Origin: Myxococcales bacterium
Lineage (GTDB): Bacteria; Myxococcota_A; UBA796; SXON01
DNA length: 46,616 nt
Reading direction: 5' to 3'
NCBI GenBank assembly: GCA_009692605.1
Contig: SHYV01000002.1
Location: forward strand, 1-46,616
The stretch's first letter is position 1; the number at the start of each line of letters is the position of its first letter. Below, in pieces: positions 3,606 through 45,334 of the stretch. The translations under genes and the position numbers were made by a program. Under the pieces are notes generated by a model. The model did not search any database. It saw only the letters and a list, made by a program, of their open reading frames with translations, and was not told where the DNA came from.

Positions 3606-5087
3606 TCATCTCGAGGTCCGAATGTCGCGCTCCGCCCCAGGCTTGGGTGGTTTGGGGAGCGTGGGCTTCGCCTTGAGCCGCGCGGTCTGGGTGGGAGTGC
3701 TCCCGTCCACGATCGTGGTCAGGTCGTCGTAGCCGTTCAGGTGGAGCACGACCTGAGGGGGCTCCCCCAGCGTCACTTGCAAATGCAGCGGCGTCCGCCC
3801 GATCAGGGCGCCAGCCTCGCGCACTTCGGCGCCCGACGGGCTGCTGGTCAGCTCGACATCGACCGTGACCGGGGCTCCGATCTGGGGCTCCCCGAGCGGC
3901 GGGTCCGCGTGCACCACGGGGTTCAGGCCGCTAGGCTCCGGGCCGCCAGGGTCTGGGCGTTCGAGGCCGAACCACAACCCGCCTGCGCACAGCACCGCCA
4001 GCGCCCCGACGCCCAGCACCCCGAGCACGCCCGCAGCGAGCCAGCGGCTGGTCTGGCTTGACCCCGTTCTCGTCCCCCCGCTCGGTTCGGGGCTCGACCC
4101 CCTCGACAACGGGCTGCCCACCCACTGCAAGGTCGGGCCCTGTTCGTCGGGCGCTCGCAGCCAATCCAGTACCGCCTCGGCGTTGGCCGGTCGATCCTCG
4201 GGCCGCTTCTCCAGCAGCGCGTGGATCAGCGTTGCGAGGGAAGGGCTCAAACCGGGAACCTTCTCGGTCAGCGGCGGCGGGGCGTCCCGCACGTGCTGCA
4301 TGAGCATCCGGATGGTGTCGGTGGCCTGAAACGGAGGCACTCCCGCGAGCAGCTCGTACAAGACCACGCCCAATGAGTACAGGTCCGAACGTCCATCGAC
4401 GTCGGCCTCCTGAATCTGCTCCGGAGACGCGTACCTGGGCGAGCCGACGAAGTTGCCCGCGATGGTGAGCGCCTCGGTTTCGCCCATCAGCTTCGCCACG
4501 CCGAAGTCCAGCACCTTCACCGCCTCTGCCCCGTCGTCGCCCAGCTCGGCGGTGAGCATGACGTTGCCGGGCTTCAGGTCGCGGTGGACAACGCCCATCG
4601 CGTGTGCTTCGCGGAGGCTCTTCGCGATCTGCCGGCCAATCCGAGCGACCCGGTCGGAGGGGAAGGGGCCATCCTCCTTGAGGGCGCGCCAGAGCGTGCG
4701 GCCCTCCACGAATTCCATGGCGATGTATAGGCCATCTCCGGGTTCCCGACCGAGCACGGCGGGCAGCGGTAAGGTGCCGTAGTCGTATACGGTGACCGTG
4801 TTCGGGTGCCGGAGCCGGGCGCAGGTCTCGGCCTCGCGCAGGAACCGACGGCGGAGCTCAGTGGCTTCTTCGGTGTGCAGCATCGCGGGGACCAGCACCT
4901 TGAGCGCGACGATGCGACCGAGCGGCACCTGCTCTGCTCGGTAGATGCTGCCCATTCCTCCGCGGGCGATCAGGCGTTCGACGCGGTATCTCCCTGAGAC
5001 CAGCTGCCCCACCAACGGGTCAACTTCTGCCCTGACGGGCGCGCTTTCACCGCGCGGTGGCGGTGCCGGGGGGTCGGGATCAGCCAT
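3606..5087 (-). CDS. Ser/Thr protein kinase with one TM helix and an extracytoplasmic C-terminal PEGA domain (493 aa)
   Basis: The internal ATG at 5087 gives MADPDPP...GRYRVERLIARGGMGSIYRAE..IVALKVL (G-loop and VAIK Lys). HRDLKPGNVM, DFGVAK and SPRYASPEQ follow. A TM helix is present (WLAAGVLGVLGVGALAVLCAGGLWFGL). A PEGA unit follows it (VELTSSPSGAEVREAGALIGRTPLHLQVTLGEPPQVVLHLNGYDD). The upstream part of ORF 3606..5588 overlaps the next gene and is R-rich. Confidence 0.88.
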   Translation of the reverse strand: MADPDPPAPPPRGESAPVRAEVDPLVGQLVSGRYRVERLIARGGMGSIYRAEQVPLGRIVALKVLVPAMLHTEEATELRRRFLREAETCARLRHPNTVTVYDYGTLPLPAVLGREPGDGLYIAMEFVEGRTLWRALKEDGPFPSDRVARIGRQIAKSLREAHAMGVVHRDLKPGNVMLTAELGDDGAEAVKVLDFGVAKLMGETEALTIAGNFVGSPRYASPEQIQEADVDGRSDLYSLGVVLYELLAGVPPFQATDTIRMLMQHVRDAPPPLTEKVPGLSPSLATLIHALLEKRPEDRPANAEAVLDWLRAPDEQGPTLQWVGSPLSRGSSPEPSGGTRTGSSQTSRWLAAGVLGVLGVGALAVLCAGGLWFGLERPDPGGPEPSGLNPVVHADPPLGEPQIGAPVTVDVELTSSPSGAEVREAGALIGRTPLHLQVTLGEPPQVVLHLNGYDDLTTIVDGSTPTQTARLKAKPTLPKPPKPGAERDIRTSR

Positions 5088-5092
5088 CCCGG

Positions 5093-5737
5093 TCAGTTTA
5101 CCCCGGTTCCTCCCAATTGCCCGCCAGCGGTGCCCTCTACCAGCAGCGCCCGCTGCTCGAACGCTCTGGAGAGCTCGGGCAGCGTCCGCGACATCGCCCA
5201 GGCCTGAACCTGAGGGAGCATCGTTTTCGCCTCGGTCCAGAATGCGTAGGAGACGGACACGCCGCCACGCATCGGCAAAAGATCCCAGCCGCCCTGGCCG
5301 TGCAAGACGAATTCGGCTTCGGCTCCTGAGCTGTCCGCGAAGAAGGGCAGCGCCGGCCACCGCTTGGGGTCCTCCACCCACCAGCAGTTGGCGATCTTCG
5401 ATGAGGTCGTGCTCTCCCAGGCGATCGCCACCACGGCCTGCCGGGCGACCCGGATGAGTCCGCCGAGCAGGACGAGGTCGGTCGCCTGGTAGATGTGGCC
5501 GGGGTCGAGGCGATCGACGCGCTTGGTGCCGAGCGAGGCGGGGAGCCAGTCGTCCGTCTGCTCGGGGTGGGCCAGGATGCCGGCCCACGTCGTCATGTTC
5601 GCGCTGGAGAGCCAGACCACCTTTGCGCCGGCCAATTCCACGCCGTACGACGAGGTGCGCCCGCTCACCACGATCGGCCGGCCAGGCTCGGGTTCGGGGG
5701 TCGGAAGCGCGGCGTGGACCGCTATGTCACAGGGCAT
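5093..5737 (-). CDS. Hypothetical cytoplasmic protein (214 aa)
   Basis: The ORF is ATG-started with high GC3 and no export signal. It is wedged between the ASST gene (7-nt gap) and the kinase gene (5-nt gap), so it is probably co-transcribed. I recognised no family. Confidence 0.55.
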   Translation of the reverse strand: MPCDIAVHAALPTPEPEPGRPIVVSGRTSSYGVELAGAKVVWLSSANMTTWAGILAHPEQTDDWLPASLGTKRVDRLDPGHIYQATDLVLLGGLIRVARQAVVAIAWESTTSSKIANCWWVEDPKRWPALPFFADSSGAEAEFVLHGQGGWDLLPMRGGVSVSYAFWTEAKTMLPQVQAWAMSRTLPELSRAFEQRALLVEGTAGGQLGGTGVN

Positions 5738-5744
5738 GGGGTCA

Positions 5745-7100
5745 TCATAGCTCCCACGGCAGCATTGCCAACGGGATCACCTGTCCGAACCCGCTGCCGG
5801 GATCCGAGTCGAGCTCCCAGCGGATCAGCCCGTCTTCGCGGGCGATCTCGGTGATCGACGCGGAGCATCCGTAATTGATCAGCACGTGGCTGCTCGGCAT
5901 CGGGAGGGCTTGACCGAGGCAAAACGCCACGTCGTGGCCCTGATGACGCCAGAGCTCGGTGAGCGTCCCGTCGTCGTCGTCGATGGCGTACTCGAAGGCG
6001 CCGGAGTTTGAGCCGTCGGTCGGCGTGCTGAAGATCATCAAGGTTGACGGGTCGTCGTGCTCGTAGACCGGCGAGTGCTGGTTGCTGAACGGGGTGGAGC
6101 CCTCCGCGTAGCCGTACCCGGGCGGGCCGAGCTGCCGGCTGGGGGTCATCGTGCTGCGATCGATGTCGAACAGCATCTTGAGGTGGGAGAACGAGGTGAG
6201 GTACTGATTGGTGGTGTCGCTGTAGGACAGCATGTTGCCGTGTGACCAGTCCAGCCCGCCATACAGGCTGATGCTGTCCATGTCATCGTTCCAGACCGGA
6301 TCAACCCAGTCCCAGATTGACCAGACCCTCGTGCCCTCGCCTCCGGGGGGGACCTCGACGATGGCGTCGCCAATCCAGCTCTCGGTCACCCCGTCCTCGT
6401 TGACGACGTCGCGCGGGTCGATCTGCTGGTAGGCCAGCGTGCCGTCGGGCAGCTCGGCGAACGTGTGGTGCGCGAGCGTCGTCGTCGTGCGGCTTAGGTC
6501 GGTGCCGTCCCAGTCCACCCTGCGGATGTCGGATTCGTCGGAGGAGAAGTCACGGCTGAGCTGGTTGAACAGGACGCCGCGGCCGTCGCGGGGCAGGTGC
6601 ACATCTACCCCGATGTACCCATCGTCCGTCGCCATGACCCACAGGTAGCGGCCGGTGCGGTCAACCACGAACACGTGTGAAACGGTGCCGGCCATCTCAT
6701 AAAAGACGCCGAGGAAGTAGTTCACCTCGGGGTCCCAGCCGCCGTTGTCGTTGGTGACGTTGAGCGTGGGGACGCGGCTGTTGAGCCGCCCCGTCACGGT
6801 CTCGCCAGCGCAGGTGCGGGTGCTGCCGAGCTCGTCGACCGAATGGCCGGTCCACGAGATGACCTCCTCGGGCCCTGCGCCGTACAGCGTGACCGCGACC
6901 TCGGTCGGGCTCTCCGCGTCCGCGCTGGTGTGCTCGACGCCGTCCGCGGTGGTGAACTCGACCCAGGATCGCGTGGTGGCGGAGGGCGCTGTCCACGCCA
7001 GGTTCAGCAGCATGGGGATGGGGGAGGCGGTGGCGGTGCACTCCAGCCCGGCCGGGTCGGGATGGTTGCAGCCGATCAGCGCGAGGAGCGGGATGAGCAC
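5745..7100 (-). CDS. Arylsulfotransferase (ASST)-family beta-propeller lipoprotein
   Basis: A GTG start gives (M)LIPLLALIGC (lipobox). The body shows ASST-like features: HHTFAELPDGTLAY, LDWSHGNMLSY (D-W-x-H-x-N motif) and FSNQHSPV. The signal peptide is unusually short and lacks charge (see the rejected note on a possible upstream frame). Confidence 0.65.
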   Translation of the reverse strand: MLIPLLALIGCNHPDPAGLECTATASPIPMLLNLAWTAPSATTRSWVEFTTADGVEHTSADAESPTEVAVTLYGAGPEEVISWTGHSVDELGSTRTCAGETVTGRLNSRVPTLNVTNDNGGWDPEVNYFLGVFYEMAGTVSHVFVVDRTGRYLWVMATDDGYIGVDVHLPRDGRGVLFNQLSRDFSSDESDIRRVDWDGTDLSRTTTTLAHHTFAELPDGTLAYQQIDPRDVVNEDGVTESWIGDAIVEVPPGGEGTRVWSIWDWVDPVWNDDMDSISLYGGLDWSHGNMLSYSDTTNQYLTSFSHLKMLFDIDRSTMTPSRQLGPPGYGYAEGSTPFSNQHSPVYEHDDPSTLMIFSTPTDGSNSGAFEYAIDDDDGTLTELWRHQGHDVAFCLGQALPMPSSHVLINYGCSASITEIAREDGLIRWELDSDPGSGFGQVIPLAMLPWEL

Positions 7101-8349: not shown

Positions 8350-10242
8350 ATGACCCCCGGAGCGCTGCGCGACTGGATCCCCGCGTCGCTGCACGGCGAG
8401 CTGGACGCGGTTCGTGTGCTCGTGGACAGGCTGCTCAGCCTGGCGCCGAGCCCGTTCGTCGAGGCCATGCCGACCCATCTTCTCGCCGCGATCGAGGAGC
8501 GCAGCATCGCGCCCTGGCTTGGCGCGGCTCTGTTCCTGTCCAGCGATCCGGTGGGTGAGGTGCGGGTGTGGGGTCGCGGCCCGAGGCTGTACTCCGAGGA
8601 GCGGGACTGGAACCGGCACGCGGTGCTGCTCGGCGACCTGACCCGACGGTTCGGAGAGGGCATGCGGGGGCCCCTTGAGGCGCTGCCGACCGCGCTCCGG
8701 CCGGGGCTGGTCGCGGATTGGCTCGGGCACGGGGCCCGCGGCGCCGAGCGAGGGACACCGTCGCAGCGGGTGGATCGGCGGATCGTGGAGGCCGAGCGTG
8801 CGATCGAAGCGGGGGACAGGGCTGAGGCGCTCGCTTCGCTGCTGCGGTTGTGGCGGGAGACGGGGGATCCGCTGGTGGCTGACGTGATCGACGTGCTGGA
8901 TCCGTTGGTGGGGGAGGCCATGGGGTCGGCCGAGCTGCAGGCATTCTGGGCGCGGCCGGGGTTGGAGCCGGAGATTGGCCGCGCGCTGCGGGGGGGCGCG
9001 CTGTGGGCGAGGCGGGATGGGACGGCCGCCATGGATCGCCTCGCCGCCCTTCCTCGGGACCCCCGAATTGCGACGGCGGTCCGGGTCGCCTTGCTGACTT
9101 CGCCCGATGACCCGGCGTCCGCGCAGGCAGCGGCGCAGGCGCTCGCCCGTATCGGCGATGTCCGGGGCATTCCGCGCCTCGCTTGGGAGCGTTTCCTGCC
9201 CAAGGTGGACGCCAGTGCCATGTGGACCACGCCCGCCGGGCCCGTTGAGCGCTCGCGGCTGCATGCCATCGCTCGAAGCGTAGGGGGGGTGGTTGAGCCG
9301 ATGGATGGGGTCGCCCGGAGCGTGCGGGACGCCGCCTGGCGGAGCCGGTCCGAGGATCGCGCGATGACGGCGGCCGTGCTCGGCGATGCGCTGCGTGAAC
9401 GCGGGGACGCTTGTATTCCAGCGCTGGTCGTCGGGCCGATCGACGCGGCGAGGCTGGCGGCGCTCCCCGGAAGGGCGGCAGAGGCGCTGCTGGCGCGCCC
9501 GTTTGGCTTGGAGAGCGCGACGGCGGTGTACGCGGATGGCCTGCTGGAGCGGGGGGCGACTACGGACACCTGGGGCGGGGACGCGTTCGATCCAGCGTGG
9601 GGCGCTGTCCGTCGCCTGACTGTGACCGGTTTCCGGTCGCAGTTCGTGGCCTCGTTGCCGTGTCTGGTCGGCGTGATGGTGCGAGCAGGCGTGGGGGCGA
9701 CGCTGGATGGGGCGGCTGCCTTTCTGGACGAGGTGCGGCGGCAACGAGCCGCTGCGGACCACCCGGTGCTCACGGAGCTTGGGGACGAATACGGGCTGTT
9801 CGCCCAGATCCCCGGTGAGCATGCGGCGATCGTGCCACGCCATGGCCGGCGTTTCGAGACGATCGGGCCGTTGCAGGGGGCGGTGGCGCGGCACGTGGCG
9901 GTGGTGGGCGCGCTGGAGACACTCGGAGCGGCGCTGGCCGGAATGTCGCCGAGCGTGGAGGTTGTGACGCTGGTGGAGGGCGGAGTGCCGCTCTGGGCGC
10001 CAAAGGGGTGGAGCGTGGAGGTCCATCGGCCCAGCGGACGGATGCGGGCGCGGTGGACCGGAGCGGGCGCAACTGGGCGTGTGCGGACCTCGCTGCTGGC
10101 GTTGCTTCGCCCGATGGACGCCGGGGAGCGTAGAGCGGTGGTGGTGGAGGTGCCTGCTGGGACGGGGGAGTCGGGGGAGGACCGCAGGACCCTCTCGGCG
10201 CTGCGGGAGCTCCGTGTGCGGCTCGTCGAGTACGCTCCATGA
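8350..10242 (+). CDS. Hypothetical protein (630 aa), Ala/Leu/Arg-rich helical, translationally coupled to the UvrA-family gene
   Basis: The ORF is ATG-started with high GC3. Its stop overlaps the next start (ATGA at 10239-10242). The short stretch AVYADGLLERG weakly resembles the VYADWLEERG core of the TIGR02996 repeat-companion domain (from memory, tentative). The two longer antisense ORFs here are shadows. Confidence 0.7.
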   Translation: MTPGALRDWIPASLHGELDAVRVLVDRLLSLAPSPFVEAMPTHLLAAIEERSIAPWLGAALFLSSDPVGEVRVWGRGPRLYSEERDWNRHAVLLGDLTRRFGEGMRGPLEALPTALRPGLVADWLGHGARGAERGTPSQRVDRRIVEAERAIEAGDRAEALASLLRLWRETGDPLVADVIDVLDPLVGEAMGSAELQAFWARPGLEPEIGRALRGGALWARRDGTAAMDRLAALPRDPRIATAVRVALLTSPDDPASAQAAAQALARIGDVRGIPRLAWERFLPKVDASAMWTTPAGPVERSRLHAIARSVGGVVEPMDGVARSVRDAAWRSRSEDRAMTAAVLGDALRERGDACIPALVVGPIDAARLAALPGRAAEALLARPFGLESATAVYADGLLERGATTDTWGGDAFDPAWGAVRRLTVTGFRSQFVASLPCLVGVMVRAGVGATLDGAAAFLDEVRRQRAAADHPVLTELGDEYGLFAQIPGEHAAIVPRHGRRFETIGPLQGAVARHVAVVGALETLGAALAGMSPSVEVVTLVEGGVPLWAPKGWSVEVHRPSGRMRARWTGAGATGRVRTSLLALLRPMDAGERRAVVVEVPAGTGESGEDRRTLSALRELRVRLVEYAP

Positions 10243-12917
10243 TCCGGCTCCGCGGCGCCCGGGAGCACAATCTTCGCGGGATCGATCTCGATCTGCCCAA
10301 GGGGACGCTGATCGCGTTCACGGGGGTCAGCGGCTCGGGCAAGTCCTCTCTGGCGTTCGACACGCTCTACGCAGAGGCCAGCCGGCGATTCGTGGAGGCG
10401 CTCGCGCCGGAGGCTCGTTCCCGGTTCGGGCGTCTGCGCAGGCCAGCCGTGACCTTCGTGGACGGGCTCCCGCCTGCGATCGGCGTGAGCCAACGGGGGC
10501 GTTCAGCGCCGGCTGCTCGGGCGACGGTCGCGAGCGAGGCCGAGATCCACGAACTCCTGCGCGTCGTCTGGGCCACGGTGGGCGTGCTCCACTGTCCCGA
10601 TTGCGGGACCCCCTCACGTCCCGCTACGGTGGACAGCATCGTTCGGGAGCTGGTCTCGCTTGCGCCGGGAACGCGGGTCTCGGTCCTCGCGCCGGTGGTG
10701 AGAGCCGGACGAGTCGCGGCGGTGCTGCGCGAGCTGCCCCGGCAGGGCTTTGTACGCGTTCGGCTCGATGGTGTACAGCACGCGGTGGAGGACGTCGGGC
10801 CGGTGGACGACCGTGTGCCCCACGATCTCGACGTCGTGGTGGATAGGGTCAAGATCGCGGGGGCCGATGAGGCTGACCGGCTGGCTGAGCAGCGCAGCCG
10901 TCTCGGGGAGGCGGTGCGGACCGTCCAGCGCATCGGGCGGTCCGCGGGGCGAGGGGAGGTGGTGGTGCAGGCGGGGGGCCCTGACCGGGTATACGGGGCG
11001 GCGGGCCGGTGCGGTGGGTGCTCAGCTGTGCTTCCCGAGCTTCATGCGAGGTTGTTCTCCACAAGTAGCCCCAAGGGAGCCTGCCGGAGCTGCGATGGGC
11101 TCGGCGCGGTCCGCACGGTGGACGCAGATCGGCTGGTCGTCGACCCGCTGCGCAGCCTCGCCGAGGGAGCCGTGGATGGCGGCAAGGCGGTTCGGGATGC
11201 GGCGCACGCTCACGGGATCCCGATGGACCGGGCGTGGCGGGATTTGGACTGGGCCTCTCAGGACTACGTGCTGAGGGGAGGTCCCGGCTGGGAGGGGGCC
11301 GGGCGTCGGGCCTCGCGCCGAGGCGCCAGCGCGGCTTCTGAGCGCGCGGCCATGGCGACCCTGGAGCGACCCTGCGCAGACTGCGCCAGTTCGGGCCTTG
11401 CCCCTGCTGGCCGCTCCGTACGGGTAGGATCCGCCCTCCGGGGATCCTACCCAGAATGGGTAGGATCCCCGGAGGGCGGATCCTACCCGGTTCTGGGGCG
11501 CACGCTGCCGGAGCTGCTCATGGTGCCGCTGAGTGAGCTGGTGATCGACTGCCCGGCTCCGGAGGTCGCGCCCCTGGTGGACGAGATCAACCGCCGGGTG
11601 GCCTTCCTTGTGCGGGTGGGGTTGGGCCACCTCACGCTCGGCCGCAGCGCGTCCACGCTGTCGACCGGAGAGAGCCAGCGGGTCCGCATCGCCTCGCAGG
11701 CCGGGAGCCAGCTCTCCGGCGTGATGTATGTCTTTGATGAGCCCACGGCGGGACTGCACCCGGCGGACACGGCGCTATTTCTGGACGTGCTGCGGGACCT
11801 GCGAGCTGCGGGCAACACCGTGCTGGTGGTTGAGCACGACCCGGACGTCATCCGCATCGCAGATCTGGTCGTGGACATCGGGCCCGGGGCTGGCCCCGAC
11901 GGGGGGCAGTTGCTCTACTTCGGGCCGCCTTCTGGGCTCGCCGGGCGAGAGAGCCCCACGGCGCGCTGGCTGGACGGGAGGGACAGCGCTGCACCGCCTT
12001 TGCCGCGGCAGGCTGCCGGGGTCCTCACGCTCACCGGCGCGCGCGGCCGCAATCTCACCCGGCGCTCGCCCGCCGGTGTCGATCTGGTGCTCCCCCTCGG
12101 GCAGGTGACCGCCGTGACGGGCCGGAGCGGCGTCGGAAAATCCACGCTTGTATTGGATACGCTGGCGGCTGCGGTGGCGCGACACCTTGGTGCGCTGGCC
12201 GAGCCCCTCCCCTACGACCGGCTTGACGGCCTGGACGCCATCGGCCGGCTGGTCCGCGTTGGCCTCGCCCAGGCGGCGCGCTCCGATCGCAGCTTGCCGG
12301 TCACCCTGCTCAAGCTCTGGGCGGATCTTCGGGGCCTGTACGCCAAGACCGCGCTCGCTCGGCAGCATGGCTGGGGCCCCGACCACTGGAGCCTACACAC
12401 GTCCGGGAGCGGTCGCTGCACGGCGTGCGAAGGGGAGGGCGTCCGCCACGTGGATCTACAGTTCCTCCCCGAGGTGGCGGTCGAGTGTGAGGCGTGTGAG
12501 GGCCAACGTTACGACGAGGCCACGCTCTCGGTCACCTTCCATGGCCTGTCCATGGCTCAGGTCCTGACGCTGCCTGCCCGTGAGGCGCGGGTTTTGTTCG
12601 CGAACCATCAGGCCATCGCTGGGCCGCTCCGCGTGCTGGAGGATCTGGGCCTCGGCTACCTTCCGCTCGGCCAGCCCGCCTCCACCCTCTCAGGCGGGGA
12701 GCAGCAGCGGATCCAGCTCGCGAGGGAGCTCGGAAGGCCGGGCGATGTGGCGGGTACACTGTATGTGTTGGACGAGCCTTCGATTGGGCTACACCCGGCG
12801 GACATCGCGTCGCTGCTCACCGCGCTGCATCGGCTCGCGGATGCTCGGGGAACGGTGATCGTCGTCGACACCGACCCTGCGCTGGTGCTCGGGTGCGACA
12901 ACGTAGTGGAGCTATAG
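10239..12917 (+). CDS. uvrA: UvrA-family double ABC ATPase (divergent, 892 aa, short C-terminus)
   Basis: Motifs seen are IRLRGAREHNLRGIDLDLP, Walker A GVSGSGKSSLAFDTLYAE, CPDCG, GACRSCDGLG, signature LSTGESQRVRIA, Walker B MYVFDEPTAGLHPAD and VVEHD. The second module has TGRSGVGKSTL, CTACEGEG...CEACEGQRY, LSGGEQQRIQLAREL and LYVLDEPSIGLHPAD. The second H-loop reads VVDTD. The protein ends at ...GCDNVVEL, without the usual GPEGG...GTPEE tail. Confidence 0.85.
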   Translation: MIRLRGAREHNLRGIDLDLPKGTLIAFTGVSGSGKSSLAFDTLYAEASRRFVEALAPEARSRFGRLRRPAVTFVDGLPPAIGVSQRGRSAPAARATVASEAEIHELLRVVWATVGVLHCPDCGTPSRPATVDSIVRELVSLAPGTRVSVLAPVVRAGRVAAVLRELPRQGFVRVRLDGVQHAVEDVGPVDDRVPHDLDVVVDRVKIAGADEADRLAEQRSRLGEAVRTVQRIGRSAGRGEVVVQAGGPDRVYGAAGRCGGCSAVLPELHARLFSTSSPKGACRSCDGLGAVRTVDADRLVVDPLRSLAEGAVDGGKAVRDAAHAHGIPMDRAWRDLDWASQDYVLRGGPGWEGAGRRASRRGASAASERAAMATLERPCADCASSGLAPAGRSVRVGSALRGSYPEWVGSPEGGSYPVLGRTLPELLMVPLSELVIDCPAPEVAPLVDEINRRVAFLVRVGLGHLTLGRSASTLSTGESQRVRIASQAGSQLSGVMYVFDEPTAGLHPADTALFLDVLRDLRAAGNTVLVVEHDPDVIRIADLVVDIGPGAGPDGGQLLYFGPPSGLAGRESPTARWLDGRDSAAPPLPRQAAGVLTLTGARGRNLTRRSPAGVDLVLPLGQVTAVTGRSGVGKSTLVLDTLAAAVARHLGALAEPLPYDRLDGLDAIGRLVRVGLAQAARSDRSLPVTLLKLWADLRGLYAKTALARQHGWGPDHWSLHTSGSGRCTACEGEGVRHVDLQFLPEVAVECEACEGQRYDEATLSVTFHGLSMAQVLTLPAREARVLFANHQAIAGPLRVLEDLGLGYLPLGQPASTLSGGEQQRIQLARELGRPGDVAGTLYVLDEPSIGLHPADIASLLTALHRLADARGTVIVVDTDPALVLGCDNVVEL
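11421..11489. repeat. 69-nt perfect nested palindrome (32-bp arms, 5-nt spacer; each arm is itself an 11-bp-stem hairpin) inside the UvrA-family CDS
   Basis: Verified base by base. 11421-11452 (CGGGTAGGATCCGCCCTCCGGGGATCCTACCC) is the exact reverse complement of 11458-11489 (GGGTAGGATCCCCGGAGGGCGGATCCTACCCG), with spacer AGAAT. GGGTAGGATCC/GGATCCTACCC alternate four times. Confidence 0.97.
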
Positions 12918-24905: not shown

Positions 24906-24992
24906 ACAACCCGTGACAGCCCGCGCCCTTGCGGCTTCGGTCCGTTCGACTAAGTGGGCCGGCGGTGTGTGGTCTGTCCTGTCCCGCCCGAC

Positions 24993-25017
24993 CTGGTTCG
25001 CCGCTCTGGTTCGCCGC
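24993..25017. repeat. Direct repeat of 2 x 12 bp, CTGGTTCGCCGC, separated by 1 nt, upstream of the ABC operon
   Basis: Seen directly (24993-25004, 25006-25017), 63-87 nt upstream of ATG 25080. A regulatory role is not shown. Confidence 0.85.
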
Positions 25018-25079
25018 CCCGCCGCCCGCCCTCGGGTTGGCGGCAAATCCCAACCTTCTTCTGTTACCCCGGAACGCCC

Positions 25080-26021
25080 ATGATCACGGTTGAAGGCCTC
25101 TCGCACTGGTACGGCGACCGCCGCGCCGTCGAGGGCCTCTCGTTCACCATCCAGCAGAACGAGTGCGTCGGCCTGCTCGGCCTCAACGGCGCGGGTAAGT
25201 CCACGACGATGAAGGTGCTCGCCGGCCTGCTCGTGCCCACCGGCGGCACGGTCACCATCGACGGTGCTGACCTCGTCAACGCGGGCGCAGAGTTCCGCGC
25301 CCGGATCGGGTACCTGCCCGAGGACCCGCCGCTCTACAAAGAGATGACCGTTCGCGAGTTCGTTAGCTACTGCGGCCAACTCAAGGGCATGAAGGCTCGG
25401 GATGTGGAGGCTCGGCTCGACGGTGTGCTCGCCCTCGCGCAGCTCACTGCTCGGCAGCATCAGGTCATTGGTGAGCTCTCACACGGCTACCGCAAGCGCT
25501 GCGGCATCGCTCAGGCCATCATCCACAAGCCGAGCGTCGTGATCCTGGACGAGCCGATCTCTGGCCTCGACCCAAAGCAGATCTTCGAGATGCGTCAGGT
25601 CATCCGCGACCTCGCGAAGGACGCGACGGTGATCATCAGCTCGCACATCCTCTCCGAGATCTCCGAGACCTGCGACCGGCTCATCGTGCTGAACGGTGGC
25701 CGCATCGTGGCGGCAGGAACGGAGGCGGAGCTCGCCGCCCGGGCGGGTGGTGCGAGTCGCGTGACATTGGTGGTGCGGGGCAGCGATGCGGCGATCACTG
25801 CCGCTCTCGCTAAGGCGGGTGCGGTTGGCGCCGATCGGCGTGAGGAGGCGGGGGGCCTCACGCGCGTTCATGTGACGCTTCCAACTGTGTCCAACGGCGA
25901 CTCCCGAGAGAATCTGGTGCGCGCCCTCGTCGAGGGCGGAATCGGGCTGCGTCGCATGATTGAAGATGAGGGAGAGCTCGAGCAGATCTTCCTCGGCCTG
26001 ACCAAGGAGAGTGCACAATGA
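25080..26021 (+). CDS. ABC transporter ATP-binding protein (GldA/ABC-2 type, 313 aa)
   Basis: The internal ATG gives MITVEGLSHWYGDRRAVEGLSF. Motifs are Walker A GLNGAGKSTT, Q-loop, signature LSHGYRKRCGIAQA, Walker B VVILDEPISGLD and H-loop SSHIL. Confidence 0.9.
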   Translation: MITVEGLSHWYGDRRAVEGLSFTIQQNECVGLLGLNGAGKSTTMKVLAGLLVPTGGTVTIDGADLVNAGAEFRARIGYLPEDPPLYKEMTVREFVSYCGQLKGMKARDVEARLDGVLALAQLTARQHQVIGELSHGYRKRCGIAQAIIHKPSVVILDEPISGLDPKQIFEMRQVIRDLAKDATVIISSHILSEISETCDRLIVLNGGRIVAAGTEAELAARAGGASRVTLVVRGSDAAITAALAKAGAVGADRREEAGGLTRVHVTLPTVSNGDSRENLVRALVEGGIGLRRMIEDEGELEQIFLGLTKESAQ

Positions 26022-26743
26022 GCGGCATTTGGCTGATCGCGCGCCGCGATTTCTCGGCGTTCATCAACACGTGGTGGGGCTGCGTCATCCTGTCGTTGAC
26101 GCTGCTCATCGACGGTGTTTTGTTTCAGGCCGTCGCGATGACCGCGACTCCCCGGTATTCGGCGGACGTCCTGACCGACTTCTTCTTCCTCACCGGCGGG
26201 GTGGTGCTGATCGCCGGGGTGTTCACGACGATGCGGAGCTTCGCAGAGGAGCGGCAGACCGGCACCATGGTGCTCATCGAGTCCTCGCCGCTGTCGGAGA
26301 CGCAGGCCGTGATGGGCAAGTACCTGTCCGGCTTGATGTTTCTAGCCCTGCTTCTGGGTCTCACCGCCTACATGCCCGGCATGATCTTCGTCAACGGGAA
26401 GATCAGCGAGCAGCAGATCGCGGTGGGGTACCTTGGGGTGTTCCTGATGGGAGCCGCCGGCATCGCCATTGGGACTTGGGCGTCCGCCATCTCGCGCAAC
26501 CAGCTGTTGTCGCTGGTCATCGCGGCGGTCATCACCGTCTTTTTCGTGCTGTGCTGGATGCTCTCGCGGGTGCTCGATCCGCCGTTCAAGGGGTTGTTCG
26601 CCTACATGGCCTTCTTTGACAAGCAGTTCCAACCCTTTCAGGAGGGGCGGATCAACACCGAGGGCATCGTGTTCTTCGTATCGGTCAGCTTCGCCTTCCT
26701 CCTGCTCGCTACCCGCTCGCTGATCGCCCGGAGGTGGGAATGA
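26018..26743 (+). CDS. ABC-2 type transporter permease (GldF-like)
   Basis: Its start forms an ATGA overlap with the ATPase stop. It has six predicted hydrophobic helices. FAEERQTGTMVLIESSPLS is typical of ABC-2/GldF permeases. Confidence 0.8.
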   Translation: MSGIWLIARRDFSAFINTWWGCVILSLTLLIDGVLFQAVAMTATPRYSADVLTDFFFLTGGVVLIAGVFTTMRSFAEERQTGTMVLIESSPLSETQAVMGKYLSGLMFLALLLGLTAYMPGMIFVNGKISEQQIAVGYLGVFLMGAAGIAIGTWASAISRNQLLSLVIAAVITVFFVLCWMLSRVLDPPFKGLFAYMAFFDKQFQPFQEGRINTEGIVFFVSVSFAFLLLATRSLIARRWE

Positions 26744-28584
26744 GCTCCGCTGGCATGCTTTACGTGATCGGGAGCTTCCTGATCTTCCTCGCCGAGCGCA
26801 TGTTCTCGGGCAACGACGCGGTGCGGTGGCCGCTCGATCTGCTCGGCGTTGCGCTGGTGGTGCTCGCCCTCGTTGGTCGCGCACGCAGCTGGTCCCGTCA
26901 TCCGAAGGCGACCCAGCTTTCGCTGGGTTTCTTCGGCCTCTCGATGTCCTCGGTGCTGTTCTGCGTGGCGGCTTCGAAGGACTGCATAGCGATGTGCGGC
27001 CTTGACGCCGAGACTGCCAAGCACGTGGTCGTCGGGCTGCAGGCGATGGTCCCCCTCGTCTGGTTCGTGGGTGCCCTCCCTGCGCTGGCGATCGACGCGA
27101 CGCTGTCAGCGAGCCCGCACAGCGTGCATCCCGGTCGGCTCCGGGCTGCCCTTGAGGGAGGCCTCGCCGTGGCGCTGGGTCTCGCGATGCTCTTCCCGCT
27201 CAACTATCTGGCTTCGGAGTACAACAAGCGGGTCGACTACGGGTTTTTTAAGACCACCTCGGTGGGGACCTCCACCCGCGCTGCCGTGGACAGCCTCACC
27301 GCGCCTATTCGAGTGGTGCTGTTCTTCCCCCCGTCAAGCGAGGTGCTCCGTGAGGTGCGCCCGTACTTCGACGATCTGGCGGGAGCCAATTTGAGCGTCG
27401 AGGTGATGGATCAGACCATGGACCCCGAGCAGGCCAAGGCGTGGAAGGTCAAGGACAACGGGACCATCGTCATCGTGAAGGGCGAGGGCGACGACGAGCA
27501 GACCGAGTCGGTCAAGCTGGAAGACGACATTGACAAGGCCAAGAAGGACCTGCGTAAGCTGGACAGCAAGGTGCAGACCGCGCTGCTCAAGATCTCCCGG
27601 GACAAGCGTACGGTGTACTTCACTGTCGGCCACGAGGAGCTCTACTGGAAGAGCGCGGCGGACGATCTTTCGAACCTCGACTTCGCCAAGAAGATGCTTG
27701 AAGGCCTGAACCTGAAGGTCAAGGAGCTCAGCGTGGCGACCGGTCTCGCGCAGGCCGTGCCCGACGACGCCGCCATGGTGTTCATCGTTGGGCCGAAGCG
27801 GTTGTTCCTCCCCGAGGAGATCAAGGCGCTTTCCGACTATCGCGAGCGTGGGGGCGCGTTGTTCATCGCGATGGAGCCGTCCAGCGGTCCGGATGATCTC
27901 AGCGACCCGGCGGTCGCAGCGCTCGCTGGGGTCGGATTCGGCGATGTCGCCCTGCTCTCCGACAAAGCCTTCCTTCGGGTGACGGGCGGACCGAGCGACC
28001 GGGCGTTTGTCGGGACCAACAAGTACAGCTCCCATGAGTCGGTGACGACGCTCGGCAAGAACTCGGCGCAGGCCACGTTCATCGCGCCGGGTGTCGGTGC
28101 GCTGCTGGAGCTTCAGGAGCACGCTGGTAAGGTCACCAACGTGTTGAAGGGAATGCCTGAGTGGTGGGCGGACGGCAACGGCAACTACGAGTTTGACAAG
28201 GACGCTCCGGCGGCCGGTCTGGACGGGGTCTTGCCGCCGCCAGCCGAGAAACGTGGCGGCTACGAGATCGCCAGCGTGGCGACTGGTCCGGCCGAGGGCG
28301 GTAAAGAGTGGCGGGCGGCCATCATCGGCGACTCGACGTGGATGTCCAACGGCATCCTCAAGAATCAGGCCAACGCCGTCTATCTGGTCTCCACCGTCGG
28401 CTGGCTGACTCAGGATCCCGCGCTCACCGGGGAGACCGAGACGGAAGAGGACATCAAGATCCAGCATACAAAGGAGGGCGAGGCGATGTGGTTCTACGGG
28501 ACCAGCCTGCTGATGCCGACTCTGGTGCTGCTCGCCGGCATGCTTCGCGTTCGGGCGCGCCGCGCCAAGGGAAGTGAGAAATGA
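26740..28584 (+). CDS. GldG-like ABC-transport auxiliary protein with an extra polytopic N-terminal region
   Basis: ATG 26740 is preceded by GGAGG and overlaps the upstream stop (ATGA). GTG 26734 is an alternative start. About five N-terminal TM helices are predicted. An ABC_transp_aux-like body follows (IRVVLFFPPSSEVL...LSVEVMDQTMDPEQAKAWKVKDNGTIVIV...). A C-terminal TM helix is present (MWFYGTSLLMPTLVLLAGML). Confidence 0.8.
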   Translation: MSSAGMLYVIGSFLIFLAERMFSGNDAVRWPLDLLGVALVVLALVGRARSWSRHPKATQLSLGFFGLSMSSVLFCVAASKDCIAMCGLDAETAKHVVVGLQAMVPLVWFVGALPALAIDATLSASPHSVHPGRLRAALEGGLAVALGLAMLFPLNYLASEYNKRVDYGFFKTTSVGTSTRAAVDSLTAPIRVVLFFPPSSEVLREVRPYFDDLAGANLSVEVMDQTMDPEQAKAWKVKDNGTIVIVKGEGDDEQTESVKLEDDIDKAKKDLRKLDSKVQTALLKISRDKRTVYFTVGHEELYWKSAADDLSNLDFAKKMLEGLNLKVKELSVATGLAQAVPDDAAMVFIVGPKRLFLPEEIKALSDYRERGGALFIAMEPSSGPDDLSDPAVAALAGVGFGDVALLSDKAFLRVTGGPSDRAFVGTNKYSSHESVTTLGKNSAQATFIAPGVGALLELQEHAGKVTNVLKGMPEWWADGNGNYEFDKDAPAAGLDGVLPPPAEKRGGYEIASVATGPAEGGKEWRAAIIGDSTWMSNGILKNQANAVYLVSTVGWLTQDPALTGETETEEDIKIQHTKEGEAMWFYGTSLLMPTLVLLAGMLRVRARRAKGSEK

Positions 28585-29795
28585 GGTCAGTCGCGCTGTT
28601 TGGGACGATTCTCGTCGTCTCTCTTGCATTCTCGTGGGTGAGGTACACCGGGGGTGAGGAGAAGGTCAAGGAGGGCACGATCCTCATGGACGGGAAGAAG
28701 GAAGACCTGCAGCGGGCGAAGTACACCTCGCCCGACCTCACCGTGGAGTACGAGGTCCGAAGCGATGGCATCGGCTCCTACGGCTGGCTCACGGTGTCCG
28801 AGAACAAGAAGAAGAAGGTCCCCGATCCGGCCAAGCCCGGCTCGATGATGGACTCGACCGAGCTCAAGCTCTCCAAGTTCAAGGCGGGCAGCGGGAATGA
28901 CAAGCTCGTGGACGGGCTGGCGCCGCTCATGGCAGTACGCGCGCTCGAGGATGTGCCGGCCGACAAGATCGAGTCGTTCGGCCTGACCGCACCCGATACC
29001 ACGCTCTCCGTCACCATCGGCGGCGCCGAGCGCGCCTTCTTGGTCGGCGGCGAGACCTACGGCACGAAGGACCGCTATGTGAAGGACGCCTTGTCTGGGC
29101 GGATCTATGTCGTGGACGACGAGGTGTTCAAGTCCCTCAAGTTCGCAGCGACGCGGCTCCCGGAGCGCGCTCTCAGCGATCGCAAGCCAGAGGAGATCAC
29201 CGGCGTCTCGCTCGGGCAGGGGGCAAGCACCGCCTCCTGGACCCACAAGAACAAGGACGACAAGGCCGCCGCGCACTGGCAGCGTGACGGCGCCCTTCCT
29301 ACAGCTCCGACCGATGGGGCCACCCCCCTGGAAGGTGAGGCTCCGGCGGCGGACCCCGGCAAGGACGTCACGTTCGCCAACTGGGTCGAGGCTGCGCTCA
29401 AGCTGAAGTCCACGGCGTACGTTCAGGATGGCGACGAGCCCGCCACGCTCGAAGCCGCGTTCGATCTCACCCTTCGGGCCGAGGGCAAGCCGGACCAGAC
29501 GATCCACCTTCTCCACGACGGGGATGATTGGTATGCGCGCAGCGAGTTCACACGGGGGCTGGTCAAGATCTCCAAGGGGCCTGCGGAAGACAGCTACTCG
29601 GACGTGGACGACATCCTCGCCGGCAAGACCCCGCCGCCGAAGGCGAAGCCGGCCAAGCCGGCTGGCGCGCCCACGAAGGCTCCTGGGGGCGACAAGCCCG
29701 ATGCTGGGCCGGGCGGTCGCCCCCCCGGCGGGCCCTCCGGGATGATGCCACGGTCTCCGGGGATGATGCCAAAGCCCGGAAAGCCTGCGGGGTAG
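28581..29795 (+). CDS. DUF4340-like protein, N-terminally anchored (usual partner of GldG-type transporters), with a Pro/Lys-rich tail
   Basis: Its start forms an ATGA overlap. It has an N-terminal TM helix (ALFGTILVVSLAFSW). The body has IESFGLTAPDTTLSVTIGGAERAFLVGGETYGTKDRYV....GRIYVVDDEVF. Position and architecture fit DUF4340. Confidence 0.65.
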   Translation: MRSVALFGTILVVSLAFSWVRYTGGEEKVKEGTILMDGKKEDLQRAKYTSPDLTVEYEVRSDGIGSYGWLTVSENKKKKVPDPAKPGSMMDSTELKLSKFKAGSGNDKLVDGLAPLMAVRALEDVPADKIESFGLTAPDTTLSVTIGGAERAFLVGGETYGTKDRYVKDALSGRIYVVDDEVFKSLKFAATRLPERALSDRKPEEITGVSLGQGASTASWTHKNKDDKAAAHWQRDGALPTAPTDGATPLEGEAPAADPGKDVTFANWVEAALKLKSTAYVQDGDEPATLEAAFDLTLRAEGKPDQTIHLLHDGDDWYARSEFTRGLVKISKGPAEDSYSDVDDILAGKTPPPKAKPAKPAGAPTKAPGGDKPDAGPGGRPPGGPSGMMPRSPGMMPKPGKPAG

Positions 29796-42123: not shown

Positions 42124-43486
42124 TGTTGTAGAGCCTGAATTCCACGCGGCGGTTCTGGGCGCGGCCGGCGTCCGTGACGTTGTCCGACACCGGCACGGTC
42201 TCGCCGAAGCCGACGGACCGCATGCGCTCCGTCCCTAGCTCGTTTTGCAGGAACCAGTCCATGACCGCCAGAGCCCGCCGGTCGGACAGGTCCAGGTTGA
42301 ACGCGTCATCGCCGACATCGTCGGTGTGCCCCTGAATCTCGAAGTTCAGCTCCGGGTACTGCTGGAACACCGACAGCGCCTCGTAGAGGGTCGTGAAGCT
42401 GGCTGGCCGGATGATCGCCTTGTTGGTCTCGAACGTGATCCCGGGGATGACGCCCGAGAACTTTCGGACTTCGGTGGGCAGCTCATCCGGGCACCCGTCG
42501 CCGTCGAGGTAGCCGTTCAGCGTCTCCGGCTCATCGGGACACCGGTCGCGCTTGTCCGAGACCCCGTCATCGTCGTTGTCCTTGTCCGGGCAGCCGTCGT
42601 CGTCTGCAAACCCGTCGAAGTCCTCGGCGTTGTCCGGGCAACGGTCGCGCTTGTCCTTGATGCCGTCGCTGTCGTTGTCGGGGTCCGGGCAGCCGTCTTC
42701 GTCATCAAACCCGTCCTTGTCTTCTTTGTCGTCGGGGCACTTGTCCTTCTTGTCCTTGATGCCGTCGCCGTCGTTGTCGGGGTCGGGGCAGCCGTCGTCG
42801 TCCTCGAACCGGTCACGGTCCTCGGGGTCCTCTGGGCAGTCGTCGACGTCGTTCTTGATGCCGTCGTGGTCGAGGTCTGGAGGCGTCTCTTGCCGGAAGT
42901 CGATGCCGATGGTCCACTCGAGGTTCTGGAAGGAGTCGGACTGGTCGAACTGGCTGTCCGGGCCGAACGAGCCGTACCAGCGCAGGTCGGTGCGGATGTG
43001 GAAGGGGCCGACCGCGTGGAGGATCAGGCCGGGCCCGCCGTTCATCACGAAGTCCTGCGAGGGGTTGACGTACAGCGCGCGGTCCTGCGCGTCAGGCTGG
43101 TCGCTCACCGAGTCGCGCTCGACGGTCACGAACTGCTCGCCCGCGCCGAAGCCCAGAAACAGGTCGGCGCGCGCGTTGGGCGTCAGGTGGATCAGCAGGC
43201 TCGCGCGCGGATTGTACGCGTGGTACACGATCCCCAGATCGCGGGTGCGCCCCTCGATCCGGCCGATTTCCCCCTCGATGTCAAAGGTGTCGATGAGCCG
43301 AACGCCGAGCCGGATCACCTCGGTCATGCCGCCTTCCAGCGGGTTGTCTGCGGGTGTGGACAGCAGGCCCACGGCGACGCCGCCGGTGGCGCTCACCGGC
43401 GTCTGGTCAGGCTGTGCTCTTGACCCCGCGGAGGCAGGGGCGGCGAGGGCGAGGACGAGGTTGAGGAGCGGGGACACGTGGACCAA
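42104..43486 (-). CDS. OmpA-family outer-membrane protein with thrombospondin type-3 (TSP3) calcium-binding repeats
   Basis: A signal peptide and N-terminal barrel-like region are present. About eight D-x-D-x-D-G-x-x-D-x-x-D-x-C-P repeats follow (DNDGDGIKDKKDKCPD...). The C-terminal OmpA domain has NFEIQGHTDDVGDDAFNLDLSDRRA...RAQNRRVEF. The start is TTG 43486 or GTG 43477. The 3' end overlaps the fcl-like start by 20 nt. Confidence 0.85.
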   Translation of the reverse strand: MVHVSPLLNLVLALAAPASAGSRAQPDQTPVSATGGVAVGLLSTPADNPLEGGMTEVIRLGVRLIDTFDIEGEIGRIEGRTRDLGIVYHAYNPRASLLIHLTPNARADLFLGFGAGEQFVTVERDSVSDQPDAQDRALYVNPSQDFVMNGGPGLILHAVGPFHIRTDLRWYGSFGPDSQFDQSDSFQNLEWTIGIDFRQETPPDLDHDGIKNDVDDCPEDPEDRDRFEDDDGCPDPDNDGDGIKDKKDKCPDDKEDKDGFDDEDGCPDPDNDSDGIKDKRDRCPDNAEDFDGFADDDGCPDKDNDDDGVSDKRDRCPDEPETLNGYLDGDGCPDELPTEVRKFSGVIPGITFETNKAIIRPASFTTLYEALSVFQQYPELNFEIQGHTDDVGDDAFNLDLSDRRALAVMDWFLQNELGTERMRSVGFGETVPVSDNVTDAGRAQNRRVEFRLYNNEDPAD

Positions 43487-43516
43487 GGGATCCTATCCGG
43501 CATAGACCCGGTCGCC

Positions 43517-45334
43517 ATGCCCACCCTCGAAGAGCAAGCGGACGGCCTTCCGGCCGAGCCCGGCGTGTACCTCTGGAAGGACGCGGACGGCGTGGTGCTC
43601 TACGTGGGCAAGGCTGTCAGCCTGCGCGCGAGGGTGAAGCAGTACCTCGGCGGGCACGACGGTCGCTATATGGTCCCGTTTCTGGTCAATCAGGCGGTGC
43701 GTATCGAGACCATTCAGGTCCGCACGGAGAAGGAGGCCCTTCTTCTGGAAAACTCGCTGATCAAGCAGCACCGGCCCCGCTACAACATCAAGCTCCGCGA
43801 CGACAAGAACTTCCTTCATGTCCGCATCGACCCGCGGTCGGAGTGGCCGCGATTCTCGTTGGTGCGGCGCCCCAAAGATGACGGCGCGAAGTACTTTGGC
43901 CCTTACCACTCCGCCACCACGGCTCGTCGCACGCTGCAGTTCGTCCAGCGCAGCTTCCCGCTTCGAACCTGCACCGACGCGGTGCTGCGGTCTCGCAAGA
44001 AGCCCTGCCTGATGCACCAACTGAAGCGGTGCATCGCCCCTTGTGTCGCCCTTTGCACGATCGAGGAGTACGAGGCGGTCCTGCAAGACGCCGTGCTGTT
44101 CCTCGGCGGCCGGGACCGCGAGCTTCAGGGGCGCTTGACGGTCAAGATGGGGGTGTTGGCGGATGAGGAGCGGTTCGAGGAGGCGGCGCGGGTGCGCGAC
44201 CTGCTGACGGCGGTCCGCGCCAGCCTGGACCGACAGGTCGTCGCCGACGTCCGCATGGGCGACCGGGATGTCTGGGGCTTGCACCGGGAAGGCGACCGGG
44301 GCGCGATCGCGTGCATGCCGGTGCGGGGCGGGCTGGCGCGGGAGCCGATGGTCTTCCCGTTCTCGGGCGAGCTCGCCGAAGACGCTGAGGTGCTGACCGC
44401 GACCTTGAACCGGTGGTACAGCGAGGAGGGGACAGCTCCGCCTGAGGTGCTGGTGCCCGAGGAGCTTCCGGCGGTGATCACGGAGATTTTGAGTGAGCTG
44501 CGGGGTCTGGTGGTCCGGGTGCTGGTCCCCCAGCGCGGCGACAAATCGCGGCTGGTGGAGATCGCGACCAACGCCGCCAGGTCACGCTTCGCGGTGGACC
44601 ACGGCGAGGAAGACCGCATTCAGCGTGCGCTCGACGGCATCGCCGAGATCGCCCAACTTGACGCGCCGCCTTCGCGGATCGAGTGCTTCGACAACTCGAA
44701 CCTGCTCGGGATGGACCCGGTGGCGTCACAGGTCGTGTTCATCGACGGAAAGCCTTCGCGAAAGGACTACCGGCGGTACAAGGTCAAGACGGTCATCGGG
44801 GCCGACGATTACGCGACGATGGAGGAGATCCTGCGCCGCAGGCTCACCCGTGCGATGGAGAGCGGGGAGTTCCCCGACCTCATCGTGGTGGACGGCGGTC
44901 GAGGCCAGCTCAACTCGGCGTTGGCTGTGCTCACCGAGCTCGGGCTCGAACAGCAGCCGGTGATCGGGCTGGCTAAGCCACGAACCGAGCGCAAGCGCGG
45001 CGACCGCGACGCCGTCGACAAGATCGTGCTGCCCTGGGAGCCGGAACCGGTGGTGCTTCGCTACGACGACCCCGCGCTCCGGCTTTTGCAGCACCTTCGG
45101 GATGAGGCCCATGACACCGCGGTGGGTTTCCACCGCAAGACACGGTCAGCGCGCACGGTGCGGAGCGCCTTGGAGGACCTTCCCGGCGTGGGGCCGGCCC
45201 GCCGGAAGGCCCTGCTGCTCCATTTCGGGTCGATGGCGGCGATGCGCGCGGCGGACGTCGCTACGCTGGCGCTCGCCCCCGGCGTGGGGCCGAAGCTGGC
45301 CCAGACGCTCTGGACGGCGTTGCATCCGGGGTAG
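43517..45334 (+). CDS. uvrC: Excinuclease ABC subunit C (605 aa)
   Basis: The GIY-YIG motif is PGVYLWKDADGVVLYVGKAVSLRARVKQY...LENSLIKQHRPRYN. A UVR domain is present (ERFEEAARVRDLL). The endonuclease region is IECFDNSN...PDLIVVDGGRGQL. The C-terminal (HhH)2 is LEDLPGVGPARRKALL. I chose ATG 43517 (MPTLEE...) over the listed GTG 43478. Confidence 0.9.
   Translation: MPTLEEQADGLPAEPGVYLWKDADGVVLYVGKAVSLRARVKQYLGGHDGRYMVPFLVNQAVRIETIQVRTEKEALLLENSLIKQHRPRYNIKLRDDKNFLHVRIDPRSEWPRFSLVRRPKDDGAKYFGPYHSATTARRTLQFVQRSFPLRTCTDAVLRSRKKPCLMHQLKRCIAPCVALCTIEEYEAVLQDAVLFLGGRDRELQGRLTVKMGVLADEERFEEAARVRDLLTAVRASLDRQVVADVRMGDRDVWGLHREGDRGAIACMPVRGGLAREPMVFPFSGELAEDAEVLTATLNRWYSEEGTAPPEVLVPEELPAVITEILSELRGLVVRVLVPQRGDKSRLVEIATNAARSRFAVDHGEEDRIQRALDGIAEIAQLDAPPSRIECFDNSNLLGMDPVASQVVFIDGKPSRKDYRRYKVKTVIGADDYATMEEILRRRLTRAMESGEFPDLIVVDGGRGQLNSALAVLTELGLEQQPVIGLAKPRTERKRGDRDAVDKIVLPWEPEPVVLRYDDPALRLLQHLRDEAHDTAVGFHRKTRSARTVRSALEDLPGVGPARRKALLLHFGSMAAMRAADVATLALAPGVGPKLAQTLWTALHPG

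Follow-up and report, generated by a model that had tools for sequence, protein, structure and literature searches.

Mutation by template switching at quasipalindromes was reportedly described by Ripley in 1982, and palindromic elements lying in frame within conserved Rickettsia proteins were reportedly described by Ogata et al. in 2000. In Escherichia coli, thyA and lacZ reporters from the Lovett laboratory reveal quasipalindrome template-switch mutations, in which a quasipalindrome turns into an inverted repeat whose match is complete or improved as the nascent strand templates on itself or on the opposite strand (PMC7202029). Imperfect inverted repeats are thus known as hotspots of mutation. 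Monttinen and Loytynoja (2022) describe template switches that create or repair hairpin stems, with perfect stems arising in one event and then being maintained over time (PMC8794818). In-frame palindromic inserts of Rickettsia are also treated in a further account (PMC1779305). Here we describe a 69-nucleotide (nt) perfect nested palindrome inside a uvrA-like gene of a Myxococcales bacterium (assembly GCA_009692605.1). It lies on a metagenome-derived contig from an uncultured high-GC lineage (SHYV01000002.1), of which we analyzed positions 1 to 46,616, hereafter called the window.

We propose, with moderate confidence, that this palindrome arose in situ when replication switched templates (perfection of a quasipalindrome together with inverted duplication), in a loop of the encoded protein that is unconstrained and prone to insertions and deletions (indels). 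The features on which the argument turns are as follows.

11421..11489, no strand assigned: perfect nested palindrome, 69 nt, corresponding to host codons 395-417 (RVGSALRGSYPEWVGSPEGGSYP); based on the sequence and on folds.
11421..11453, + strand: arm 1, whose outer 9 nt, CGG GTA GGA, are the native conserved R-V-G codons.
11422..11452, no strand assigned: arm 1 inner hairpin, composed of GGGTAGGATCC, GCCCTCCGG and GGATCCTACCC.
11454..11456, + strand: central loop GAA, the codon of E406.
11457..11489, + strand: arm 2, with an inner 24 nt homologous to the insert of a related locus (L001, below) and an outer 9 nt, TCC TAC CCG.
11458..11488, no strand assigned: arm 2 inner hairpin, composed of GGGTAGGATCC, CCGGAGGGC and GGATCCTACCC.
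11430..11495, + strand: lineage-specific indel of 66 nt or 22 codons (SALRGSYPEWVGSPEGGSYPVL), between G397 and G420; based on alignments.
10239..12917, + strand: host gene, an intact divergent UvrA-family ATPase of 892 amino acids (aa); based on profiles, the ratio of nonsynonymous to synonymous divergence (dN/dS) and Foldseek.

The palindrome is exact and nested. An inverted-repeat search found the two arms complementary at 33 of 33 positions with 3 nt between them, and within each arm an 11-bp stem (GGGTAGGATCC / GGATCCTACCC) closes a 9-nt loop to form a smaller hairpin. This gives four occurrences of the 11-mer GGGTAGGATCC in alternating orientation, and four GGATCC sites lie at 11427, 11442, 11463 and 11478. 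The element spans 23 codons and is open in the reading frame of the open reading frame (ORF) at 10239-12917; this forward frame bears a coding signature (GC content at third codon positions, GC3, of 0.82). The fold energy of the region is -48.5 kcal/mol (z = -12.9) for single-stranded DNA, a value reached by none of 200 shuffles, and -86.3 kcal/mol (z = -11.9) for RNA, with shuffles nowhere near. The second-best local inverted repeat across the window is 74% complementary. The strength of the palindrome is far above chance expectation.

Most of this anatomy had been seen in the original prediction, which was made from the sequence alone. The nested hairpin arms, the four alternating 11-mers, the four GGATCC sites and the length of 23 codons open in the uvrA frame all stand, and the fold energies that it asked for lie far beyond shuffles. 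It had located the inverted repeat exactly, with arms of 32 nt around an AGAAT spacer where we find 33 nt around a GAA loop, and its encoded peptide was off by two residues in register. The antisense shadow ORF, in which it read nearly the same peptide, is a mere expected by-product of a palindrome in high-GC DNA.

The host protein comprises a UvrA interaction domain and two ABC cassettes. It scores 719.2 bits against TIGR00630, narrowly missing the cut-off of 729.8, and 719 against NF001503, whose cut-off is 1147. An AlphaFold2 model (mean predicted local distance difference test score, pLDDT, 88.6) matches the UvrA structures 3uwx and 2r6f in Foldseek at template-modeling (TM) scores of 0.77-0.80, in agreement with the family assigned at the outset. 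The insert lies where it had been placed by eye, right after the second CxxC of the zinc module and ahead of the first ABC signature. Residues 403-413 have pLDDT below 50 and no secondary structure, and their flanks are modeled confidently. The extra residues are thereby predicted to form a disordered surface loop.

Comparison with related loci revealed that the palindrome and the extra DNA do not share their ends. Three relatives were compared: L001, the DNA locus of the homolog P0002, is 89% identical to the host; L002 is 72% identical and insert-free, and its bin ("uncultured proteobacterium") is the sole close relative among 185,579 representative genomes; P0003 is 77% identical and was compared as protein only. 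L002 reads GTT CGT GTG GCT / GGG (V R V A / G) with nothing between, L001 reads GTC CGC GTC GGC followed by 57 nt (a 19-aa insert) and GGG, and the window reads GTA CGG GTA GGA followed by 66 nt and GGG. P0003 has a 5-aa insert only, and remoter members of the clade have none. Deletion of the 69-nt palindrome had been expected to restore an uninterrupted UvrA; the real extra DNA is instead the 66 nt at 11430-11495. The palindrome begins 9 nt upstream of this indel and ends 6 nt short of its end. Such mismatched ends are not as expected of a transposed element, and on these alignments the palindrome is not a discrete inserted element.

The position of the insert is one at which UvrA proteins vary in length. 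Between the conserved Val394 and the L-P motif, 43 of 57 aligned UvrA homologs have a loop of 7 residues (consensus V-R-V-G-G-x-T-L-P). The loop has 29 residues in the window, which makes the insert lineage-specific as proposed; it has 26 in P0002, 12 in P0003 and 11-18 in several unrelated lineages, so that the lengths seen across UvrA proteins are 7, 11, 12, 15-18, 26 and 29. Because these lengths vary in unrelated lineages, the alignments mark the loop as a recurrent indel-tolerant site. No closer relatives turned up, and no further insert-bearing orthologs were recruited: the matches to a 311-aa query were all distant, partial UvrA proteins with no more than 70% identity, and a 102-aa query around the insert returned no protein, the host protein itself included.

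These comparisons bear on whether the palindrome is real. Perfect palindromes and clustered BamHI sites are classic warning signs of a chimeric amplification read, an assembler error or linker contamination, and the source is a metagenome assembly, judged here from assembled sequence. Against such an origin, a second assembly (ENA ERZ1305449; P0001) encodes the identical insert, with a single difference (A592V) elsewhere in the protein, and both flanks carry the gene on collinearly and in frame. L001 has the codons GGA ACC and GGA GCC, one base from GGATCC, which makes the "BamHI sites" ordinary Gly-Ser codons. The element matched no plasmid record by blastn, which weighs against a linker or vector. 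Assembly k-mer sizes normally exceed 11 bp, and the 11-bp stem falls below them, so graph ambiguity is unlikely. We consider an artefact highly improbable.

The two arms differ in their relation to L001. Arm 2 aligns to the L001 insert without gaps, with 23 of 33 nt identical; by hand count on the aligned sequences, its inner 24 nt are identical at 19 positions and its outer 9 nt at 4. The insert peptides of the window and L001 share W-x-G-[ST]-[PA]-E-G-G-[SA]-x-P. The resemblance of arm 1 to the first part of the L001 insert does not go beyond shuffles (p = 0.29, or 0.09 without the RVG codons), and the L001 region matching arm 1 is 9 nt shorter. Within L001, complementarity between this arm 1-equivalent and the arm 2 region is not significant (p = 0.77). 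In the window, the inner 24 nt of arm 1 have no demonstrable homolog in L001 and are probably the copied, derived part. Because the arm 1 region of L001 is neither significantly similar nor complementary, the 33-bp palindrome is specific to the window lineage, with arm 2 apparently ancestral and the interior of arm 1 apparently derived.

The outer parts of the arms hint at a second exchange. Read on the opposite strand, the outer 9 nt of arm 2 exactly match the native RVG codons that begin arm 1. The inner part of arm 2 differs from L001 at five positions, and four of these changes turn its 11-mer into the native (R)VGS 11-mer. This pattern suggests copying in both directions, from arm 2 into the interior of arm 1 and from the native codons into the outer end of arm 2. 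Among the codons of the palindrome are several that the remaining gene seldom uses (four GGA, two GTA, one CCA and one GAA), and GC3 is 0.65 inside the insert versus 0.82 in the rest of the window gene. These codons are chosen because complementarity dictates them.

Divergence from L001 constrains the age of the perfect pairing. Across the host gene, synonymous divergence (dS) is 0.65 and dN/dS is 0.08, and from this low ratio we take the gene to be functional and under strong purifying selection. Over the 19 alignable insert codons dN/dS is 1.13, which together with the low pLDDT means that the insert peptide is unconstrained, a neutrally evolving, disordered loop. Arm 2 differs from L001 at 30% of sites. 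At a per-lineage divergence of 0.19-0.33 substitutions for each neutral site, about 11-16 of the 33 pairs should by now be broken in a palindrome that dates from the common ancestor and was not homogenized, and for all 66 nt to stay unchanged has a probability of 3e-6 to 5e-10. With this divergence and zero broken pairs, the 33/33 pairing is, by this estimate, recent or actively homogenized or maintained.

Active maintenance would follow if the hairpin were a selected nucleic-acid structure held in frame, with pairing rather than peptide under selection. Its place of action could be the mRNA, where it might be cut by RNase III, pause translation or serve as a stability element, or the DNA, where it might be bound by a protein or recombinase; template switching may still have been its mutational source. 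Consistent with such a role, arm 2 with its flanks forms a hairpin of -34.1 kcal/mol (z -6.2), and L001 forms one on the same axis (RNA fold -27.4 kcal/mol, z -4.6; L001 7290-7335, AAAGTGGCACGG..CCGTTCCACTTT) that is imperfect but significant. The structure persists despite 30% sequence divergence and a neutral peptide; at two stem pairs, both partners have changed between the window and L001, and pairing is kept in each. GC3 is depressed in the inserts of both lineages (0.63 in that of L001 versus 0.86 in the rest of its gene, alongside the window values above), which suggests constraint at the nucleotide level.

Other observations speak against selection on the structure. The comparison involves two sequences only, and by our own arithmetic 4 stem positions changed on both sides where 2.6 are expected, no real excess. 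Clade members at 77% identity or less lack the structure, P0003 having its 5-aa insert only, which indicates that it is dispensable for the gene. The 33-bp palindrome is absent from L001. No Rfam family exceeded its threshold for the palindrome region, and a scan of 10900-12000 found no terminators or promoters. Generic hairpin models in Rfam (miRNA precursors; P35 at 39.8 bits against a cut-off of 70) were rejected as sub-threshold. We regard a selected hairpin as unlikely.

A bolder version can be drawn from the same pattern, because both lineages kept the same-axis hairpin while the peptide drifted, and in the window it was doubled into a 33-bp palindrome. The palindrome might then be a self-perpetuating or selected in-frame hairpin module, such as an mRNA cis-regulator of the uvrA-like operon acting as an RNase III site or a ribosome pause, or an uncultured high-GC lineage might here have yielded the first sighting of an unknown, hairpin-targeted mobile element. 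To this we assign little probability.

Under template switching, the same data would be accounted for as follows. The ancestor shared with the 89% identical relative would already have had about 19-22 extra residues in a variable, disordered loop, encoded by DNA with a moderate hairpin centered on GGAGG. In the window lineage, the nascent strand would have folded back, or jumped to the opposite strand, and copied a complementary arm in one or more events. The 5' part of the insert would have been overwritten by the reverse complement of its 3' part, and the 3' end of the insert made to match the native R-V-G codons. The outcome would be a perfect 33-bp nested palindrome with the (R)VGS 11-mer four times in alternating orientation. 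It would have been tolerated, the net gain of 9 nt staying in frame and the loop peptide being free of selection.

We infer this mechanism, along with the number of events and the direction of copying, from the sequence comparisons. Template switching is favored because palindrome and indel have different ends, with the first 9 nt of the palindrome being native, because one arm appears ancestral and the other a clustered replacement, and because the arm identity is recent, the peptide unconstrained and the loop recurrently subject to indels. It is favored further because the codons are driven by complementarity, no second copy was found in the collections searched, the window has no transposase and the mechanism is established. 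As in quasipalindrome and template-switch mutations, what is new matches the reverse complement of its neighboring sequence exactly (33 of 33 positions, 3 nt apart); an imperfect hairpin would have become perfect, and several clustered bases would have changed in one step together with length. The process would also act in situ, the replisome sufficing without an element or extra enzyme. On the DNA of one relative, one arm appears ancestral and the other a clustered replacement. As for a pre-existing imperfect inverted repeat, L001 has the hairpin in its arm 2 region, and complementarity between its two halves is not significant.

The palindrome also departs from described template-switch products. 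It is unusually long, with 33-bp arms, and nested; it lies in frame in a gene under purifying selection, with about 9-12 loop codons rewritten; and here the event is deduced from a single ortholog comparison rather than observed or reconstructed on a tree.

Several points weigh against template switching. L001 is the only informative ortholog DNA, so that the ancestral state and the direction of copying come from a two-sequence comparison, and the contrast within arm 2 between its inner and outer parts (19/24 versus 4/9) is suggestive rather than decisive. A single event would not suffice for the nested form unless an outer stem was there beforehand. The search for copies covered the window, the related loci and public collections, and a low-copy repeat family elsewhere in the source genome is possible. 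Both lineages keep a significant same-axis hairpin with two pairs changed on both sides, which template switching can explain and so can selection on structure.

The original prediction had instead likened the palindrome to mobile mini-elements: Rickettsia palindromic elements (RPE), repetitive extragenic palindromic (REP) sequences, or miniature inverted-repeat transposable elements (MITE). On such a reading, an ancestral in-frame insertion would have been followed, in the window lineage, by refreshment through gene conversion from copies elsewhere in the genome or by re-insertion. The layout is like that of the REPIN, a pair of REP units, with two inverted hairpin units forming a longer, GC-rich hairpin and the tetranucleotide GTAG in each unit. 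Like an RPE, it is an in-frame palindromic insert in a conserved housekeeping-type protein, at a surface-exposed, tolerant site and with the ORF intact, and the Rickettsia precedent itself counts in favor.

The copy search argues otherwise. The window contains no second copy of the arm at up to 9 mismatches in 31 nt, in line with the single copy first reported, and at the same tolerance the L001 and L002 loci (32 kb from two related genomes) contain only the orthologous site. The exact arm, GGGTAGGATCC, N9, GGATCCTACCC, has no match in the 185,579 representative genomes. Viral contigs gave no stem match, and plasmid and phage records gave no blastn match to the element. A looser stem search of JGI metagenomes (7-11-nt loop) returned three matches, about the number estimated by chance; these are single unrelated intergenic hairpins with other loops (GC 0.51, 0.72 and 0.58), and we rejected them as a family. 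Within the source genome the copy search covered this contig, which leaves some room for a mobile element.

At the protein level, a 30-aa query of the insert peptide found no other protein family among 1.84 billion cluster representatives (one per 50%-identity cluster, with limited sensitivity). Two weak matches were rejected as chance: P0122, a lysine-rich tandem-repeat protein, and P0123, an ORF called across a CRISPR array. In P0123, the strings GSIPAWAGKP, VHPRVGGET and GPSPRGRGN recur every ~20 residues, which is one repeat translated in three rotating frames and marks the ORF as spurious. One-mismatch copies of the 11-mer GGGTAGGATCC occur outside the palindrome at four positions (292, 14486, 32105 and 43488), with no inverted partner nearby. 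Dinucleotide shuffles give an expectation of about 0.6 in total and a largest value of 4, and these stray copies are probably an effect of codon composition, of GGATCC-containing Gly-Ser and Asp-Pro codons.

The ends and setting of the palindrome likewise differ from those of mobile elements. An RPE belongs to a dispersed, multi-copy family of ~100-150 bp with discrete ends, its peptide recurring in unrelated proteins, whereas here there is one 69-nt copy with offset ends, including 9 nt of native codons, and no family was found. REP and REPIN sequences, mobilized by RAYT transposases (PMC3116915, PMC3337134), are extragenic and present in tens to hundreds of copies with a RAYT gene alongside. 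The palindrome, in contrast, is intragenic, in a coding sequence under purifying selection, and single-copy in 46.6 kb with many intergenic regions. Canonical GTAG lies 5' of the stem, whereas here it is paired within it. A MITE has terminal inverted repeats and a target-site duplication; here the left flank (...CTCCGTA) and the right flank (GTTCTGG...) share no direct repeat beyond GT. No transposase, RAYT included, was found among the 31 window ORFs scanned against Pfam, and a single-copy RAYT gene could sit elsewhere in the genome.

A mobile mini-element is, in our judgment, quite unlikely. The earlier proposal had itself named two outcomes that would tell against it, and both have largely come about: the 89% identical ortholog has a homologous segment whose first half is non-palindromic DNA, and no further copy turned up in this contig, the related loci or the public collections.

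Other classes of hairpin were considered and dropped. The GTTRRRY core of an integron attC site is absent, as are the sequence hallmarks of a LexA box. Mitochondrial "byp" elements of Magnusiomyces and the insert of phage T4 gene 60 are inserts that the ribosome skips, and they are not open reading frames. The palindrome resembles them as a short GC-rich hairpin insert in coding sequence flanked by GGA codons; it differs in being open and in frame, with no in-frame stop at a take-off codon and no sign of bypassing, and translational bypass was set aside.

Divergent UvrA paralog-like proteins (P0001-P0008) form a small clade that includes the host protein. These score slightly under the UvrA equivalog cut-off, have no match to PF17755 (the UvrA DNA-binding/insertion domain) and are ~25-40 residues shorter at the C-terminus than canonical UvrA (window 12840-12917). 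At the second ATPase site they have VVDTD in place of the VVEHD/VIEHN H-loop, replacing the catalytic His with Thr. Given these deviations, a role in excision repair is uncertain. A 630-aa ORF without a Pfam family (8350-10242, + strand) shares its last 4 nt (ATGA) with the beginning of the uvrA-like gene, and the pairing is kept in L001 (644 aa, 4142-6076) and on the P0003 contig (619 aa), which suggests from gene order a conserved two-gene operon.

Elsewhere in the window, at a distance of 30 kb downstream from the uvrA-like gene, there is a full-length uvrC gene (43478-45334, + strand) whose domains are GIY-YIG, UvrC RNase H and HhH. A four-gene cluster at 24954-29795 (+ strand) encodes an ABC ATPase, an ABC-2 permease, an ABC_transp_aux protein and a DUF4340 protein, a layout that we take to resemble gliding-motility-type (GldA/F/G-like) ABC systems.

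The palindrome may have consequences for the gene that carries it. Its transcript would contain a 33-bp perfect RNA stem in a coding region, long enough to serve as an RNase III substrate, and this stem could slow ribosomes. The DNA site may be prone to more template switching or to deletion. Palindromes are inviable in E. coli only from a certain size upward, which 69 nt does not reach. No function likely need be invoked for it.

The palindrome is most likely no new class of system, and the product of a known mutational mechanism acting in a permissive loop rather than a mobile mini-element. For annotation, a perfect palindrome lying in frame does not, on its own, count as evidence for a mobile element; the questions to ask are whether palindrome and indel end at the same places and whether there are further copies. 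Should template switching be the right reading, this locus would offer a clean natural case in which the mechanism wrote new, translated protein sequence in a single step or a few, with ~9-12 codons rewritten in a bacterial gene that is intact and under purifying selection. It would likewise show a nested perfect palindrome assembled in nature from the gene's own codons.

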